Below, piece by piece: positions 3,809 through 29,570 of a stretch of 29,570 nucleotides of DNA (positions are counted from its first letter, which is position 1; each line of letters opens with the position of its first letter). Below the pieces are notes generated by a model that worked only from the letters and a program-made list of their open reading frames with translations, made no database searches and had not been told where the DNA came from. The position numbers were made by a program, and so were the translations under genes. This DNA comes from a virus (Duplodnaviria; Heunggongvirae; Uroviricota; Caudoviricetes): the IMG/VR virus record IMGVR_UViG_2778261297_000001; one strand, 5' to 3'.

Positions 3809-6798
<2,990 letters not shown>

Positions 6799-8023: not shown

Positions 8024-8434
8024 ATGGATCAGGTAGTCATTTTTAAACAAATATTTGATAAAGTTCGAAACGATTTAAACTATCAATGGTTTTATTCTGA
8101 GCTAAAACGTCACAATGTCTCACATTACATTTACTATTTAGCCACAGAGAATGTTCATATTGTATTAAAAAATGATAATACAGTGTTATTAAAGGGCCTA
8201 AAAAACATTGTGTCTGTCAAATTTTCAAAGGATAGGCATCTTATAGAAACGACCTCTAATAAGCTGAAATCCAGAGAGATCACATTTCAGGAATACAGAA
8301 GAAACCTTGCTAAAGCAGGAGTTTTTCGGTGGGTTACAAATATCCACGAACAAAAAAGATATTACTATACCTTTGATAATTCATTACTATTTACTGAAAG
8401 CATCCAGAAAACTACACAGATCTTACCACGCTAA
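8024..8434 (+). CDS. ydfO: YdfO (DUF1398 family, 136 aa), function unknown
   Basis: [34 protein letters not shown].. recalled as YdfO; AT-rich moron-like composition. Confidence 0.7.
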
Positions 8435-10005: not shown

Positions 10006-11033
<1,028 letters not shown>

Positions 11034-11088
11034 GGATATTTATCAGGATGCTACCAATGAAAGATACTGGAAAGCCAACTGCAAAAAG

Positions 11089-11403
11089 CTAACAACCCGT
11101 AATCGAGTTATCTGAACTGTTAATTTTTATGGTATACCGAGCCTCTGAACAGGGTCGCGTTTCTGGCAACAGCTCGTCCCCTTCACATAACCCGGCAGCA
11201 ACATCCAGGAAGACCTGTCTGATGCTCCTTCTGGCTGCTGCCTCATAAAACTCCAGCGCGGCACCTTCAACACGGTCCAGCGAGATGTCCAGGTCAAAAA
11301 TTTCACCGTCAAAGCGTTCTTTGTCCCGTAACGCTAAAGTTACCGTAACTTTATTCTCAAAATTGCGGATCCCTTTCACAATCAGTTCATATTTTTGAGT
11401 CAT
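11089..11403 (-). CDS. ydfR: YdfR-like protein (104 aa), function unknown, between holin and endolysin
   Basis: ORF MTQKYELIVKGIRNFENKVTVTLALRDKERFDGEIFDLD..; position inside lysis cassette. Confidence 0.65.
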   Translation of the reverse strand: MTQKYELIVKGIRNFENKVTVTLALRDKERFDGEIFDLDISLDRVEGAALEFYEAAARRSIRQVFLDVAAGLCEGDELLPETRPCSEARYTIKINSSDNSITGC

Positions 11404-11407
11404 TGAA

Positions 11408-11623
11408 TTACTCTCCCCGTGCAGCCTTACGCTTGTCTTCTTTAATCTTGAAATAAAGGTTTGTCAGATACGTCAGCATGCCAAATACCAGACTACCCAA
11501 TACACCTATTGCCGCCCACTGTGAGGGCGTGACTTTATCGAGCAACTGTAAAAACCAGTAGCCAGCACTGCCTGCAGAGGTGCTGTAGGCGATGCCCGTT
11601 GTTAACTTATCCATGGATTTCAT
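11408..11623 (-). CDS. essQ: Class II holin (phage 21 S-like pinholin, 71 aa) with dual-start motif MKSM
   Basis: Translation [71 protein letters not shown]; two TM helices; matches S21 family from memory. Confidence 0.85.
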
Positions 11624-11813
11624 AGCCTCACCTCCGCAGATAACGGATGGTGTACACGGTTTGGTTCGAAGAAGGAAAGAAGTTACATTAGCGTAAGGCC
11701 CGAACATCTATTCAAAAAGAAAAACGCCAGCAATTATTCTGGCGTAGCTAAAAATATCGTATAATCTTACACTTCAAAAAATAACTTTATAAAATGCCAT
11801 CACATCATATCTT

Positions 11814-12536
11814 CTAAGAAAATCTTGATAAATATTGGTGCGGAGGCACACCAAAATATCCTCTAAAAACACTTACAAAATATGATGCATTGTCATACCC
11901 GCATATTCCCGCCACCTTGCCGACAGTATGGTTACTGTAGATCAATAATCTTTGCGCCATCATCATTCGTTCTTCAAGAATTAATTTACTAAACGATAAT
12001 CCTTCGTCTTTTAATTTTCTTTTTAACAAACTCTCGCTCATATATAATCTTGAAGATATATCACAAAGTCTCCATGACGCTGAGATATCCGAGTGAATAA
12101 TAGCCTTAACTTTACAACCTAAGCTATTAAGACTTCCGAACAAAAAACTTTGCACTATTTTCTCTGAAGATAAGACAGCAAGACATGCAAGTGATATTTG
12201 ATTTCTAACTACATCCACGGTTTTGCTATCACAATTCAAGCATGCAACCAAGTTCTTTAACAATGAAAAATCTTCACATTCTACTATCAAGTATGACGGA
12301 TAAAACCTTCTTACAGAAAAAGGTGAGAGTGTGTAGTTTTTAAAGAAATCATTAACTGTTTTCTCCTCAACATCTACGATCATTAGATGATCTGTATTTG
12401 ACGAAAAAAGATCTTTTAAATTGTATTCAATGAGAACAGCATTTCCTTTTTTAAACAAAATATCTTCTTTACCAATTCGGACACCAAACGAGTTCAACAC
12501 CAAAATGATAGAACATATGTATGGCATATTATCCAC
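11814..12536 (-). CDS. AraC/XylS-family transcriptional regulator (240 aa), prophage moron
   Basis: C-terminal AraC-type HTH signature (..GKVAGICGYDNASYFVSVFRGYFGVPPHQYL); AT-rich gene between late promoter and holin. Confidence 0.8.
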   Translation of the reverse strand: MDNMPYICSIILVLNSFGVRIGKEDILFKKGNAVLIEYNLKDLFSSNTDHLMIVDVEEKTVNDFFKNYTLSPFSVRRFYPSYLIVECEDFSLLKNLVACLNCDSKTVDVVRNQISLACLAVLSSEKIVQSFLFGSLNSLGCKVKAIIHSDISASWRLCDISSRLYMSESLLKRKLKDEGLSFSKLILEERMMMAQRLLIYSNHTVGKVAGICGYDNASYFVSVFRGYFGVPPHQYLSRFS

Positions 12537-12933: not shown

Positions 12934-13893
12934 TTAATTCACCATCAGTCTTAGAGCCAGTTCTTCCGGATAGGGATCGAAGTAATTCTGTGTAAGCAAG
13001 TAATCATTAGGATACTCACCCAGATAATGCTTCAGCAGAGTCAACGGCGCAAGAAGAGGCAATGTGCCAAAGCGATAGTTAAGTATAACCTCGCTCAACT
13101 CTTTACGCTGGCGTGTACTTAAGTAATTACTAAAATACCCCTGTATATGCATCAGCACATTCGTGTGATTTTTACGTGATGCTGGTTTTCTGAGAATCGC
13201 CATCAGATTATCACGATACACCTCAAAGTATGATTCAAGGTCCGCCCACTCGTGTATTGCAGCCACAAATGGTCCCATATCTTTATAGCCTGCCTGGCTA
13301 TGCGCCAACAACTGAAGCTTATAACGACTATGAAAAGCTAATAACTCTCTTCTTGATAATTTCTCCTTGTAAAGGTGATTGAGCTCATGCAAAGCAAAAA
13401 CTCTTTCAATAAAATTCTCACGAAGCACTGGATCATGTAATCGCCCATCCTCTTCAACCGGTAGCCAGGAAAACTTTTCCATCAAAGTGCTCGTAAATAG
13501 TCCCACTCCATCTTTACGACCTCGATTACCATTTTCATCATAGACACGCACGCGCTCCATGCCACAGCTGGGAGATTTAGCACAAACCACAAACCCCGAT
13601 ACATCCTTTAATTTGTCCATATAAGAACGACTAAACTCTGTCATTCTCTCTGTCACATCCTCATTCTGGTCGTGGCTGAAACACATCCGTATATTTCCTT
13701 GCTTCGAGCGCACAAGTCGTAGAGCAGGACGCGGAACTGGCAGCCCTATAGCCATTTCCGGACATACTGGTCTGAATGTTACCCATTCCACTAATTTGTC
13801 CATTAAAAAGTCATCTCTTTTGTGACCACCATCAAAACGAACAGCAGAACCGCCCAAACAACCGCTGATCCCAATCACAGGTTTTTTTATCAT
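12934..13893 (-). CDS. DUF523 (TudS-like thiouracil desulfidase fold) fused to DUF1722 (YbgA-like) protein, 319 aa
   Basis: N-terminal motifs GISGCLGG..VRFDGG, PVCPE and KSPSCG resemble DUF523/TudS Fe-S ligand motifs; C-terminal half resembles YbgA/DUF1722; domain assignment from memory. Confidence 0.7.
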   Translation of the reverse strand: MIKKPVIGISGCLGGSAVRFDGGHKRDDFLMDKLVEWVTFRPVCPEMAIGLPVPRPALRLVRSKQGNIRMCFSHDQNEDVTERMTEFSRSYMDKLKDVSGFVVCAKSPSCGMERVRVYDENGNRGRKDGVGLFTSTLMEKFSWLPVEEDGRLHDPVLRENFIERVFALHELNHLYKEKLSRRELLAFHSRYKLQLLAHSQAGYKDMGPFVAAIHEWADLESYFEVYRDNLMAILRKPASRKNHTNVLMHIQGYFSNYLSTRQRKELSEVILNYRFGTLPLLAPLTLLKHYLGEYPNDYLLTQNYFDPYPEELALRLMVN

Positions 13894-14085
13894 TTCCTCC
13901 CCCTTGACTAATTCATTAACACATAAACTTTGTAGTGCACGGACTAAATTGCCTTTCTGGCTTCATCACTGACAATTTTTCTGTTATTGACTATTCCTAA
14001 TATAGTAGGAAAGTTCTTTAAGTGATCGGTCGTACTCATCTATCTTTCATACTTACTCTCAACTATCAAAAGTACAGGATTTATT

Positions 14086-14610
14086 ATGAAGTTATGGCCT
14101 GTGTTGACTGGCATTGCACTCTCTTTCACTCTTATAGCATGTAAGGCCCCGACACCACCTAAAGGTGTGCAGCCGATTACAAATTTTGACGCCAACCGCT
14201 ACCTCGGAAAATGGTATGAAATAGCTCGCCTCGAGAACTGGTTCGAACGTGGTCTGGAACAGGTCAGCGCTACTTATGAAAAACGGAACGACGGAGGGAT
14301 TCGCGTACTTAACCGTGGATACGATCCAACGAAAAACAAATGGAGCGAGAGCGAAGGTAAAGCATACTTTACTGGAGATACTAAAACTGCAGCGTTGAAA
14401 GTTTCGTTTTTTGGCCCCTTCTATGGTGGCTATAATGTAATCAAACTGGATGATGAGTATAAGTATGCTCTTGTCAGTGGTCCGAACAGAGAATACCTAT
14501 GGATTCTGGCAAGGACCCAAACTATTCCAGATAATGTAAAAGCAGACTATGTGCGTACCGCTCAAAAGTTGGGATTCAATGTCAATGAACTATTATGGGT
14601 TAAACAATAA
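14086..14610 (+). CDS. Bacterial lipocalin (Blc-like) outer-membrane lipoprotein, 174 aa
   Basis: Signal peptide with lipobox LIAC; lipocalin motifs GKWYEIAR and FFGPFYGGYNVI; about 60 percent identical by eye to E. coli Blc. Confidence 0.85.
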   Translation: MKLWPVLTGIALSFTLIACKAPTPPKGVQPITNFDANRYLGKWYEIARLENWFERGLEQVSATYEKRNDGGIRVLNRGYDPTKNKWSESEGKAYFTGDTKTAALKVSFFGPFYGGYNVIKLDDEYKYALVSGPNREYLWILARTQTIPDNVKADYVRTAQKLGFNVNELLWVKQ

Positions 14611-14765: not shown

Positions 14766-15158
14766 TTATTTCGAACAATCAGCATCCATCTCCAATCGGA
14801 GATCCAACACCATCAGCATGCCCTCCACTACGCCCTCAGCTTTCTGGAGCATCCTGCCAACCCAACAATCAGATCGCCCATGCTTACGTGCAAGCGCCAT
14901 AAAAGTCATGCCGCCGACATAATAGTCCACCAATAAATCATGTAAATCGCTGTTGTTTTTTTTCAGGCGAGCCATACATTCACAAATGATCATCGCGTCA
15001 TCGTCACAGCATTGCGGACGAGATCTTACTTTTGAAGGAATTAATCCCTTAAAACCGGCGGCAATGGACGACCAGGTCACATCTTCATGATTATTAGCCG
15101 CCCATGCCCCCCAACGCTCAAGAACCATCTGAATATCACGCATCAACTTACTCCACAA
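14766..15158 (-). CDS. Late antiterminator Q, small 21/82/933W-type family (about 125-130 aa)
   Basis: Cys-rich Zn-binding region ([17 protein letters not shown]) and overall similarity to small Q proteins of lambdoid Stx-type phages; located immediately upstream of terminator and late genes. Confidence 0.7.
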
Positions 15159-15160
15159 AA

Positions 15161-16210
15161 TTAGGCCAGCACACCAATTGCCAGCGCGCGATCGATAAAT
15201 CGAAAAATCAGCTCCAGTTGGGAGCCATACTTCTCTTCAAATGCCACGGTATCCGTATGCAACTCGTCGTGATGCTTTCTGCACAAAGGCAACACAAAGA
15301 GATCATGTGCTTTGGTTCCCATTCCGCCCTGCCCGTGACCAATCAGATGATGCGGATCGTCGGCTGGCATACCGCAGCAAGCACACGGCTGTGTCTTAAC
15401 CCAGCGTGTGTATTTCTCCTTAACCCAACGGTGACGTTTAGGCAGCTTCATGAAAGATTCCGGAGACTCTGGATCAACGGTGATGCTTACCACCGTCTTT
15501 TCTTGTGATGGGTTTTGTTGCTGGTGGGCGTGAGGCAACGGTGCAAGATTTTTTGTGCGCTGTTTCAGTATGCTGGTGGCGGTCTGCTCTCCCGGTACGA
15601 TGTCGCTTTCACGGTACATTGAGCGGATTTTTTCCGCACGCAACCCCAGCGAACGACGTAATACCGCTTCCGGTAGCGCGTCCGCCACCTGATTGCGGAC
15701 CGCCCACCAGGATAATTCAGCCAGAGATAATTCACGCTCCTGCGTACCGCTTATTGCGTGACCGATGACGTCAATCATCCATGCTGACAGGTTTTGATGA
15801 GCTAGTTGCTCGAGTGATTCGGATGTCTGGTCACGCAGCTGGTTGTCGCAGTGCCAGCACAACACCATTGCGCCGGTACCATAACGGTGAATGACGGTTT
15901 CGCTGTGATGATAATCGCCGTGTGGCCACTGGCAGGATTTAATATGGCGCAACAGCCAGTCAGACAATGCACCAGCACCACCAGCAGCACGAATCACCCG
16001 TGCGTTACTGAAAAACGGCAGCAATGTTTTGTCTTCCACCAGCGGCTGGCGAGCGGCAGGAACGACCCCGGACGGCAGATTACGCATGCTTTTCGGTTCC
16101 GGCTCCACCAGTAACCGGGTATTGTGGAATACCGGCATGGGTTCACGGCCCGGCTTAACGATCACCAGCCCGAGTTCCGGTACCAGAACAGGTCGAAGTA
16201 ATACCCGCAC
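15161..16210 (-). CDS. DUF968 protein (YdfU-like, 349 aa) with C-terminal HNH/Zn-ribbon-like motif
   Basis: C-terminal [43 protein letters not shown] cysteine/histidine cluster; nin-region position upstream of Q. Confidence 0.7.
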
Positions 16211-17024: not shown

Positions 17025-17180
17025 TTACTCCTCAGGTTCGTAAGCTGTGAAGACAGCGACCTCCGTCTGGCCGGTTCGGATTCGTACCTCGCAGAGGTCT
17101 TTCCTCGTTACCAGTGCCGTCACTATGACGGTTAAACAGATGACGATCAGGGCGATTAACATCGCCTTTTGCTGCTTCAT
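17025..17180 (-). CDS. hokD: Hok-family membrane toxin HokD/RelF (51 aa)
   Basis: Manual translation MKQQKAMLIALIVICLTVIVTALVTRKDLCEVRIRTGQTEVAVFTAYEPEE; below ORF track threshold. Confidence 0.85.
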   Translation of the reverse strand: MKQQKAMLIALIVICLTVIVTALVTRKDLCEVRIRTGQTEVAVFTAYEPEE

Positions 17181-17251
17181 AGCCTGCTTCTCCTGTCAAC
17201 GCAAAGCAGAAGTGTCACCTTCGGTGCGAAACAGAGATGTCATGCTTTGGT

Positions 17252-17539
17252 TCAGAGAATGCGTTTGACCGCCTCGCTATATACTTCCGAGCGTTCTCTT
17301 TTCCCAACAGAAATCACGAAAACGACAACTTTCTCGTCTATAACCTGGTATACAAGGCGATAGCCTGAAGACCGGAGCTTAATCTTGTAACAATCAGGCA
17401 TACCACGGAGCTTGTTTGCTTCAATCCGGGGTGACTCAAGTACTTCAACCAGCTTCTTTTTCAACTGTTCACGTACCGTCGAGCCCAGCTTTCGCCATTC
17501 CTTTAGTGCCCGCTCGTCAAAATCCAGAAAATACGCCAT
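17252..17539 (-). CDS. relE: RelE mRNA interferase toxin (95 aa)
   Basis: Full-length match from memory to RelE (MAYFLDFDERALKEWRKLGSTVREQLKKKLVEVL..). Confidence 0.92.
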   Translation of the reverse strand: MAYFLDFDERALKEWRKLGSTVREQLKKKLVEVLESPRIEANKLRGMPDCYKIKLRSSGYRLVYQVIDEKVVVFVISVGKRERSEVYSEAVKRIL

Positions 17540-17778
17540 CAGAGTTCATCCAGCGTCACACGTACTGGCTTAGGATTACGAAGCCGTTCTTTCACTATCT
17601 CCACAAGTTCAGCATCTTCATCACTCAGGAGTGTCTGTTTGAACGGCAAGCGTTCATTGTCAGCGATATACTCGAGCATGAGACGAAGCGCTTCAGAAGG
17701 AGTTACACCCATTTTTTCAAGCGCGGCGTAAGAACGCGCTTTAAGTTCATCGTCAATACGCAGGTTAATGCTACCCAT
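17539..17778 (-). CDS. relB: RelB antitoxin (79 aa)
   Basis: Full-length match from memory to RelB; stop overlaps relE start. Confidence 0.92.
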   Translation of the reverse strand: MGSINLRIDDELKARSYAALEKMGVTPSEALRLMLEYIADNERLPFKQTLLSDEDAELVEIVKERLRNPKPVRVTLDEL

Positions 17779-19079: not shown

Positions 19080-20009
19080 TCAATCTTTTTTATCGGGATC
19101 AGGCTTCTTTTTAGGTAACTTCGGGGGCTTAACTTGCTGATGACTTTGCGTTCGGCGCGTAAGCCAGGGATGGTCAGCTTTAGGTTTAACATAGTATTTT
19201 GAGCGTAAATCAATACGGGCATTATCCACTCGTTCATGGACACTCTTTTCATCATCCAGTGGTATAGGCTCCGGGCCATCAACATACTTTTCCCAGCCCA
19301 GCGCTTTCCCGTCATACAGAACGTTAATTTCACCGTCAAAGTTCTCGCATACAGTAACAACCGAATGCCTAAGTCGATATCCCCGGCTCTCACTGCGTAC
19401 CTGAAACGCACTGCTTTTGTACTGGAAAGTGAGATTTTTAGACAGAACGCGCTTCGCCTGTAGGCTGAAGATATAACCCAGTTCCTCTTCAGAATGGTGC
19501 ACATCAAGATGAGCATTATCAGTAGTACGAGGCGACGTAGCGAACCGGTTGTTATAGGCTTCAATAAAAGTCGGCAACCATGCATTTGCTGTTTCAATAT
19601 CACTGATATTCTGAAGCCGCATTTCTTTGACCAGCCTGTCCTGTAGTGTCTGATTGGCGCGCTCTACCCGCCCTTTTGCCTGCGGGCTGTTGGCATGGAT
19701 TGGCTCGATGCCCAGTGTCTTTATCGCACGAGTGAACTGGGTCAGCTCACCTTCCCGCTCTGGGTTATTTACCCTGAATATACTGTGTCTATCAGAGTAG
19801 AGAGCGAGCGGTACGCCATGATCATTAAGGTAACCCCGGAGGGTTTCCATGTAAGCCCGGGTTGTTTCAGCAGGCACAAAACGCAACGCCATCAACGCAC
19901 TGGTGGCATCATCAATGAAAACGATCAGTGTACATCTGGGGCCTCGATTTTCAAACCAGTCATGAGGTGAGCCATCAATCTGGATCAGTTCACCGTAAGA
20001 TGGTTGATC
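19080..20009 (-). pseudogene. rve (DDE integrase-core) family transposase/integrase fragment, N-terminally truncated
   Basis: DDE signature ..IQIDGSPHDWF.., ..LALYSDRHSIF.., ..SPQAKGRVERANQTLQDRL..; reading frame extends upstream of annotated Met to a stop at 20010-20012 with no HTH domain; GC-richer than flanking prophage DNA. Confidence 0.7.
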
Positions 20010-29231: not shown

Positions 29232-29570
29232 GGTGATGCTGCCAACTTACTGATTTAGTGTATGATGGTGTTTTTGAGGTGCTCCAGTGGCTTCTGTTTC
29301 TATCAGCTGTCCCTCCTGTTCAGCTACTGACGGGGTGGTGCGTAACGGCAAAAGCACCGCCGGACATCAGCGCTATCTCTGCTCTCACTGCCGTAAAACA
29401 TGGCAACTGCAGTTCACTTACACCGCTTCTCAACCCGGTACGCACCAGAAAATCATTGATATGGCCATGAATGGCGTTGGATGCCGGGCAACAGCCCGCA
29501 TTATGGGCGTTGGCCTCAACACGATTTTACGTCACTTAAAAAACTCAGGCCGCAGTCGGTAACCTCGCGC
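29232..29570 (+). mobile_element. IS1: IS1 insertion sequence, partial (IRL-proximal 339 bp; truncated by window edge)
   Basis: Begins GGTGATGCTGCCAACTTACTGAT; exact reverse complement of 1-339. Confidence 0.95.
29287..29562 (+). CDS. insA: IS1 InsA protein (91 aa)
   Basis: Identical translation to 9-284. Confidence 0.95.

Follow-up and report, generated by a model that had tools for sequence, protein, structure and literature searches.

A probable RudS-type tRNA 4-thiouridine desulfidase encoded between Q and the holin gene of a decayed Qin-type prophage of Escherichia coli

The locus and its prophage

The stretch of DNA that was analysed (the window; 29,570 nucleotides) is identical to positions 4160923-4190492 of the chromosome of Escherichia coli EC09 and corresponds to the locus of the Qin prophage, with ydfJ' on one side and rspB on the other. 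Its minus strand holds an ORF of 319 aa, here called rudS, which starts with ATG and is uninterrupted (Table 1). The identical ORF in EC09 is named “YbgA family protein” by RefSeq (WP_000592549.1). A first-pass annotation, made from the letters of the DNA, had placed the gene in a prophage late region, which holds, and the interruption of the gene that it had named as a ground for rejection is absent. The gene for the antiterminator Q lies upstream, and the genes for the holin, lysozyme and Rz-like protein lie downstream on the same strand.

Table 1. Features of the rudS locus, in window coordinates
Feature	Position	Strand	Basis
ydfU	15161-16210	-	
Antiterminator Q, directly upstream in the late direction	14766..15143	-	PF06530, E 8e-51; annotation
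Terminator-like hairpin, 9-bp stem + 7 T, ~100 nt past the Q stop codon	14644..14667	-	terminator scan
Lipocalin (Blc-like), first cassette gene, opposite to the late operon	14086..14610	+	PF08212, E 7.5e-43; phrog_2809
blc-rudS intergenic region, 192 bp, between divergent genes	13894..14085		
rudS CDS including stop codon	12934..13893	-	ORF call and Pfam; RefSeq WP_000592549.1
TudS/DUF523 catalytic domain, residues 7-149	13447..13875	-	PF04463, E 5.8e-40
DUF1722 domain, residues 192-309	12967..13320	-	PF08349, E 9.4e-40
Cys12 codon	13858-13860	-	
Cys44 codon	13762-13764	-	
Cys110 codon	13564-13566	-	
AraC-family HTH regulator, third cassette gene	11814..12536 (RefSeq start 12527)	-	PF12833, PF00165; phrog_1450
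Terminator-like hairpin between the AraC-like gene and the holin gene	11724..11745	-	terminator scan
Lysis cassette, downstream	10006..11623	-	Pfam and annotation
Holin EssD	11408-11623	-	
YdfR	11089-11403	-	
Lysozyme RrrQ	10500-11033	-	
Rz-like RzpQ	10006-10503	-	

Between Q and the holin gene, rudS is accompanied by a divergent gene for a lipocalin (blc) and by a gene for an AraC-like regulator. The GC content is 30–34% in the AraC-like gene, 40–45% in rudS and blc, and 47–57% in the flanks. This low-GC cargo cassette, inserted between Q and the holin gene, has the hallmarks of a moron. The order of Q, blc, rudS, AraC-like gene and holin gene is also found in phages 1H12 and IdasGreatGrand, and the linkage of the three cassette genes was constant in the phages examined. 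The lipocalin, RudS and AraC-like proteins all belong to PHROG families of “unknown function”, which is PHROG 3275 in the case of rudS. A literature search on this prophage cassette found nothing relevant, and the single preprint rich in mentions of lipocalin deals with mouse lipocalin-2. The junction of Q and the holin gene is the slot that holds the stx genes in Stx phages. The Qin prophage of K-12 presumably carries cspB-cspF in the same place, which would make the slot a variable one.

The window prophage is a decayed, cryptic remnant of the Qin type that has no immunity and replication genes. The repressor gene cI, cro, O, P and the capsid and tail genes are all missing, and the portal gene is truncated. 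A scar of ISEsa1 occupies the expected place of cI, cro, O and P, and copies of IS1 are present at both ends of the window. A fuller version of this prophage is found in strain 13P484A. Because the window prophage is cryptic, any activity of rudS in this genome must come from autonomous or leaky transcription, and the gene can play no part in phage development in this setting.

The presence of rudS in the species was scored with a threshold of at least 80% coverage of the 960-bp gene and at least 90% identity. Of 5426 complete E. coli genomes, 1064 (~20%) carry the gene by this measure, in up to three places per genome, on Qin-like or lambdoid prophages. This contradicts the published statement that E. 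coli lacks homologues of TudS and RudS (PMC11417400). The 3.5-kb cassette was found in 848 E. coli genomes. For rudS itself, the best match reached at least 99% identity in 407 records. Some other strains have rudS copies that are interrupted by IS elements, or small remnants of the gene. C41(DE3), a derivative of BL21(DE3), keeps only a 147-bp fragment of rudS; BL21(DE3) itself was the expression host in the RudS paper.

Domains, residues and predicted fold

At first pass, the protein had been read as a TudS-like DUF523 domain fused to DUF1722. The profile search recovered both domains at full length and without overlap, with E-values of the order of 1e-40. The N-terminal domain matches PF04463 (“2-thiouracil desulfurase”) over profile positions 1-141 of 141 and scores 137 bits against a Pfam cutoff of 34.7, and the C-terminal domain matches PF08349 (DUF1722) over positions 1-117 of 117 and scores 136 bits against a cutoff of 22.5. 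The NCBIfam model of YbgA, PRK10167 (NF007549), covers residues 161-315 only. Its score of 189.1 bits does not reach the equivalog cutoff of 237 bits, so a YbgA-like domain is present and the protein is not a YbgA equivalog. The RefSeq name “YbgA family protein” is explained by this match of the C-terminal half, and it understates the protein.

Fusions of TudS and DUF1722 have been named RudS and described as [4Fe-4S] tRNA 4-thiouridine (s4U) desulfidases (Jamontas et al. 2024, Nucleic Acids Res 52:10543; PMC11417400). Members of the family are recognised by a TudS/DUF523 domain followed by DUF1722, each with an E-value below 0.001 over more than 80 residues (PMC11417400). In the window protein, 143 aa of PF04463 are followed by 118 aa of PF08349, at the E-values given in Table 1.

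The iron-sulfur cluster of TudS and RudS is held by three cysteines, and its fourth iron is left free for the sulfur of the substrate (PMC11417400). The window protein has C12, C44 and C110, and the ligands of RudS_vir and RudS_ST bear the same numbers in the RudS paper's own Table 1 (PMC11417400). In the alignment with TudS (6z92), C12 pairs with C10 and C110 pairs with C104. The motifs quoted by the first-pass annotation were all found in the translation, as VIGISGCLGGSAVRFDGG, RPVCPEMA and CAKSPSCGME. A further remark made there, that one expected cysteine appears to be replaced in VRFDGG, proved to be mistaken, since the cluster needs three cysteines only and all three are present. The valine at the disputed position is no defect, because crystallised TudS has the same Val-Arg-Tyr-Asp-Gly context, “CLLGQPVRYDGQ” (6z92).

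Residues of the catalytic type are also present, namely Glu46 in PVCPE, Arg55 in PVPRP, and Ser107 and Ser109 in KSPSCG. The glutamate, the two serines and the arginine were equated with E51, S111, S113 and R60 of RudS_KT by a constant offset from the ligand cysteines. Mutation of any of these RudS_KT residues, or of the cysteines, abolished activity, and the Y25F mutant had wild-type activity (PMC11417400). The equivalent of Y25 in the window protein is F20. Ser239 and Arg240 are invariant among 32 homologues and are a candidate tRNA-contact pair, since they stand, by numbering offset, where S243 and R244 would be expected, the residues with which the DUF1722 domain of RudS_KT contacts tRNA.

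A search of a protein collection returned thousands of homologues, and the best 120 are almost all 319 aa long with both Pfam domains. Those among the best 120 that come from outside E. coli share 69-76% identity with the window protein and belong to Citrobacter, Serratia, Klebsiella, Enterobacter, Pectobacterium, Salmonella and others. Conservation of the ligand cysteines, which had been proposed as a check, was borne out in an alignment of 32 homologues with 69-97% identity. C12, C44 and C110 are invariant in it, together with R19, F20, D21, E46, R55, S107 and S109, and the allele of phage 1H12 discussed below has no difference at any of these positions.

The same alignment was used to build an AlphaFold2 model, which has a mean pLDDT of 73.6 and a pTM of 0.74 and is of low confidence at residues 13-25 and 284-319. 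When the model was compared with the PDB by Foldseek, the top five matches were all TudS (E 3.1e-5 to 1.7e-4; probability 1.00). Their TM-scores were 0.64-0.68 normalised to TudS, with approximately 26% identity, and the next match had an E-value of 0.61. The comparison with TudS that had been suggested at first pass thus came out as expected, with TudS entries as the only significant matches in the PDB. As modelled, the N-terminal half has the TudS fold. The Foldseek search of the model against the PDB found no solved structure like the DUF1722 half.

Phage and chromosomal relatives

RudS_vir is gp66 (H3V29_gp66, YP_009909557.1) of Escherichia phage 1H12 (Jouyvirus, NC_049947) (PMC11417400). 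In a tblastn search of a phage collection with the window protein, RudS_vir showed 91.8% amino acid identity over the full length and without gaps, and a “hypothetical protein” of Escherichia phage IdasGreatGrand showed 97.5%. The 26 amino acid differences from the 1H12 allele are mostly conservative, and the nucleotide identity is 91.6%. Both proteins have 319 aa, Cys12, Cys44 and Cys110, and the catalytic Glu, Arg, Ser and Ser; RudS_vir differs by an extra cysteine, Cys257, where the window protein has a tyrosine. Between the two alleles, dN/dS is 0.14 for the whole gene, 0.20 for the TudS domain and 0.11 for the DUF1722 domain, and the value for the whole gene indicates that rudS is under purifying selection. 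The gene order around rudS is likewise the same, with blc on the opposite strand. The two loci differ in the type of the downstream lysis genes, the window having a P21-type holin, YdfR and a lysozyme. They also differ in their setting, since RudS_vir is encoded in the genome of a viable phage, whereas the window copy belongs to a cryptic Qin-type prophage in a chromosome.

The activity of the family has been studied with RudS_vir included. Six RudS orthologues, RudS_vir among them, were overexpressed in E. coli BL21(DE3) and lowered the s4U of tRNA 4.7- to 26-fold, whereas neither TudS nor DUF1722 (YbgA) had this effect as a stand-alone protein (PMC11417400). With RudS_ST, the decrease was 18.3-fold (PMC11417400). 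Thiolated tRNA, which had been named at first pass as one possible substrate, is the experimentally established substrate of the RudS family (PMC11417400). Although the protein levels were comparable, RudS_vir desulfidated tRNA less than RudS_ST did, and in a uracil auxotroph on 4-thiouracil it had the shortest lag of all RudS proteins (PMC11417400). Because RudS_vir combines weaker action on tRNA with this short lag, its substrate preference may be less tRNA-specific. No RudS, RudS_vir included, supported growth on 4-thiouracil in the way that stand-alone TudS did (PMC11417400). The DUF1722 domain was modelled as a binder of the anticodon arm of tRNA (PMC11417400). The in vivo data on RudS all come from overexpression (PMC11417400).

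RudS_ST (ORF319, STM1389 of Salmonella enterica LT2) and the chromosomal RudS proteins of Enterobacterales have 319 aa, the same domain order and 69-76% identity to the window protein. RudS_ST and the chromosomal proteins of Citrobacter, Klebsiella, Serratia and Pectobacterium share all catalytic residues with it. Their genomic context is different. The phage copy is flanked by the lipocalin and AraC-type regulator genes, whereas a 75%-identical Citrobacter gene is the last of an operon with genes for an SDR, an amine oxidase, DUF1365, a cyclopropane-fatty-acid synthase, DUF2878 and DUF3833. A 73%-identical gene of Salmonella Derby adjoins ttcA and a DUF1367 gene. According to the RudS authors, the genes of this family often belong to operons that respond to light and include photolyase or carotenoid genes, and a MerR-family regulator reportedly controls Salmonella rudS (PMC11417400). 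Joint capture of the phage lipocalin and rudS genes from the Citrobacter operon was considered and rejected; the 175-aa unannotated ORF of this operon is unlike the Blc of the window (BLASTP E 1.8).

The two halves of the protein also have stand-alone counterparts. TudS (DUF523Vcz; PDB 6z92, 6z93, 6z96 and 6zw9) has in common with the window protein the predicted fold of the N-terminal 150 residues, the same three cysteine ligands and the SPSCG and CPE motifs. However, TudS has no DUF1722. It works on s4UMP and on 2- and 4-thiouracil as free bases, and in vivo the s4U of tRNA is not reduced by it. The E. coli K-12 protein YbgA (b0707) is a stand-alone DUF1722 that resembles the C-terminal half of the window protein, but it has no catalytic domain and no effect on s4U.

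Expression, function and rival readings

The first-pass annotation had also placed rudS under phage late control. The position in the late region stands, whereas the control itself is read from this position, and the window prophage is a cryptic remnant. The hairpin past the stop codon of Q is conserved in phage 1H12 and, going by the organisation of lambdoid genomes, is a candidate for the tR' of the late promoter region. For pR', the promoter scan gave weak candidates only. A candidate element after Q, TTGCTG-17-TAACAT, is common to the window and 1H12, with TAATGT as the second hexamer in 1H12. Because the position of rudS is that of stx in Stx phages, Q-dependent read-through from pR' would be plausible in intact phages.

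Other features of the locus bear on expression in the lysogen. In the blc-rudS intergenic region, 172 of the 192 alignment columns are identical to phage 1H12, and both the blc and the rudS promoters presumably lie within it. A sigma-70 consensus scan of 13894-14085 gave no site with at least 9 of 12 matches. In the wider region, 13 promoter-like sites were counted against 11.3 ± 3.2 in shuffled sequences, which is no excess. The sequence of the hairpin before the holin gene is also present in phage 1H12 (about 8072-8100 of the 1H12 locus sequence), and this hairpin is a possible 3' boundary of the cargo cassette. The low GC content, the 192-bp upstream region and this hairpin together suggest autonomous expression of rudS.

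Taken together, the protein is very probably a RudS with a [4Fe-4S] cluster, which turns the s4U8 of tRNA into U and is carried as phage cargo. The activity of the window allele would be that of RudS_vir, by analogy with this 91.8%-identical protein. Transcription would come from its own promoter in the lysogen and/or from Q-dependent read-through late in infection. In the proposed mechanism, the [4Fe-4S] cluster would sit in the N-terminal TudS domain on Cys12, Cys44 and Cys110, and its fourth, ligand-free iron would take the sulfur from the thiocarbonyl group of 4-thiouridine. With Arg55, Ser107 and Ser109 orienting it, Glu46 would activate a water molecule, and oxygen would replace sulfur to give uridine. 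The DUF1722 domain would dock the anticodon arm of the tRNA and thereby bring the s4U at position 8 (or 9) to the cluster. The outcome would be that the near-UV-sensitive s4U8 mark is erased from host tRNA. The gene would be a moron of Qin-like and lambda-like phages, placed between Q and the holin gene together with the divergent lipocalin gene and the AraC-type regulator.

The substrate is the point at which other readings of the protein diverge. It might mainly be a TudS-like salvage desulfidase that acts on free 4-thiouracil, 4-thiouridine or s4UMP, for example when thiolated nucleotides from RNA turnover are recycled, and tRNA demodification would then be a side activity of overexpression. 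The behaviour of RudS_vir, with its shortest lag on 4-thiouracil and its lesser removal of tRNA s4U compared with RudS_ST, agrees with such a role, as does the genuine TudS fold of the modelled catalytic domain. Nevertheless, this reading is improbable. Growth on 4-thiouracil was not supported by any RudS as it was by stand-alone TudS, and every tested RudS lowered tRNA s4U, which stand-alone TudS did not do (PMC11417400). Dispensable docking of tRNA also fits poorly with the DUF1722 domain being more constrained than the TudS domain, as judged by dN/dS. Action on modified DNA, another proposal of the first pass, found nothing in its support. A target other than the thiones of RNA uracil, such as sulfur-modified DNA, or a part in defence or counter-defence together with the lipocalin and AraC-like genes, is very improbable indeed. 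All that speaks for it is that rudS lies among phage accessory genes and that the three genes stay linked in every phage examined. The active site has the residues of TudS, whose chemistry is specific for thiouracil, and chromosomal homologues with 70-76% identity are found with neither blc nor the AraC-like gene. DNA phosphorothioates, moreover, are chemically unrelated to the C4 thiocarbonyl. None of the three cassette proteins matched a PADLOC defence model, and within this library the cassette was rejected as a known anti-phage defence system.

We see a minor yet serious chance that rudS of the window is a silent passenger of the decaying cryptic prophage, unexpressed and of no consequence to the cell. 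This would be in keeping with the absence of cI, cro, O, P and the genes for capsid and tail, the IS scars, the result of the consensus promoter scan upstream of the gene, and the IS-interrupted copies and small remnants in other strains. It would also suit the low GC content of the cassette, and low-GC DNA is commonly silenced by H-NS. However, the ORF is intact and recurs unchanged in many genomes, with 407 records at 99% identity or higher, and a dN/dS of 0.14 between alleles points to selection on the protein. Decay of a prophage need not silence its genes, since relBE and dicB at the Qin locus are functional despite it.

The RudS family, its chemistry and a near-identical phage allele were already published in 2024, and in this sense the gene of the window is already known. 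What RudS does for phage or host as a tRNA s4U8 desulfidase can be put forward tentatively. It is a doubtful, though not far-fetched, proposition that rudS is a lysogenic-conversion factor that sets the s4U8 level of tRNA in about one-fifth of E. coli strains, or that s4U8 is stripped in lytic growth once Q fires the gene. If this is true, the lysogenic-conversion form would blunt the near-UV/UVA growth delay and the stringent response, and RudS would be the first phage-encoded eraser of a tRNA modification with a defined physiological role. With rudS in 1064 of the 5426 genomes, s4U-dependent photobiology may differ among strains of the species. The question is raised of why temperate coliphages keep a tRNA-demodifying enzyme, with a lipocalin and an AraC-type regulator, at the junction of Q and the holin gene. 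At the level of databases, the labels “YbgA family protein”, “hypothetical” and “unknown function” (PHROG 3275) can be upgraded to RudS.

A decayed Qin locus

The entire window (1-29570) consists of the E. coli locus of the cryptic prophage Qin, flanked by ydfJ' on one side and by rspB/ynfA/speG on the other. The Qin prophage found here is heavily decayed. The portal remnant directly abuts the remnant of the tail-fibre-assembly gene, and therefore the complete head and tail module has been deleted. In the fuller version of the same prophage, found in strain 13P484A, the position taken up in the window by a transposase remnant holds the genes for immunity and replication (cI, cro, O, and P). 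Other parts of the locus follow the arrangement known from K-12 Qin, in which the small RNA DicF likewise lies just upstream of dicB/ydfD and hokD and relBE are placed in the same way relative to Q and on its strand. After cspI come ymcF, ynfR, and ynfN, small cold-shock genes of which the last contains a frameshift.

Features of the Qin locus, with window coordinates
Feature	Position	Strand	Remarks
IS1A copies	1-284 and 29287-29570		One at each window end, bracketing the Qin locus
Truncated portal gene abutting truncated tail-fibre-assembly gene	3809-4699		
"IS009" RNA, RF02111	3843-4041	-	Rfam match, 221 bits; within tail-fibre-assembly remnant
cspA-type thermoregulator 5' UTR, RF01766	9405-9789	-	114 bits; upstream of cspI
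AraC-family regulator gene	11814-12536	-	Very low GC (30-34%); phrog_1450 (unknown function)
Promoter-like site TTTACA-16-TATGAT	12886-12859		In gap after rudS
Phage-borne Blc-like outer-membrane lipocalin gene	14086-14610	+	Antisense to late operon
Toxin-antitoxin genes hokD, relBE	17025-17778	Q's strand	Upstream of Q
ISEsa1 (IS1202-like) transposase remnant	19350-19988		
DicF antisense sRNA, RF00039	20389-20440	+	76.7 bits; just upstream of dicB and ydfD

Neighbours of rudS

In the phages examined (1H12 and IdasGreatGrand), the AraC-family regulator gene was linked to rudS every time. The AT-rich gap after rudS spans 397 bp and contains a weak hairpin in addition to the promoter-like site. 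The lipocalin gene forms a convergent pair with Q and a divergent pair with rudS, and its product begins with a signal and lipobox-like sequence, MKLWPVLTGIALSFTLIAC.

RudS in other genomes

In E. coli C41(DE3), the sole rudS remnant is a 147-bp fragment of the 5' end (NZ_CP010585.1, 1588189-1588335), which is 100% identical and is annotated as "2-thiouracil desulfurase family protein". Its parent, BL21(DE3), was the expression host in the RudS study (Jamontas et al. 2024, PMC11417400). Since the derivative holds only this fragment, BL21(DE3) represents a natural near-null background.

In two single-contig homologues, RudS is extended by other domains, namely GGDEF (PF00990) in P0002 (403 aa) and DUF3833 in P0006 (500 aa); these fusions are more likely to be artefacts of gene calling or assembly than genuine domain architectures. 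A 73%-identical rudS adjoins a second tRNA-thiolation gene, the tRNA 2-thiocytidine synthase gene ttcA, together with a DUF1367 gene, both in Salmonella Derby (locus L005, 3285-5960) and on a metagenome contig (L006, 1885-4663). This adjacency is probably incidental, because ttcA is presumably the attachment site of Rac-type prophages and DUF1367 is phage-associated.
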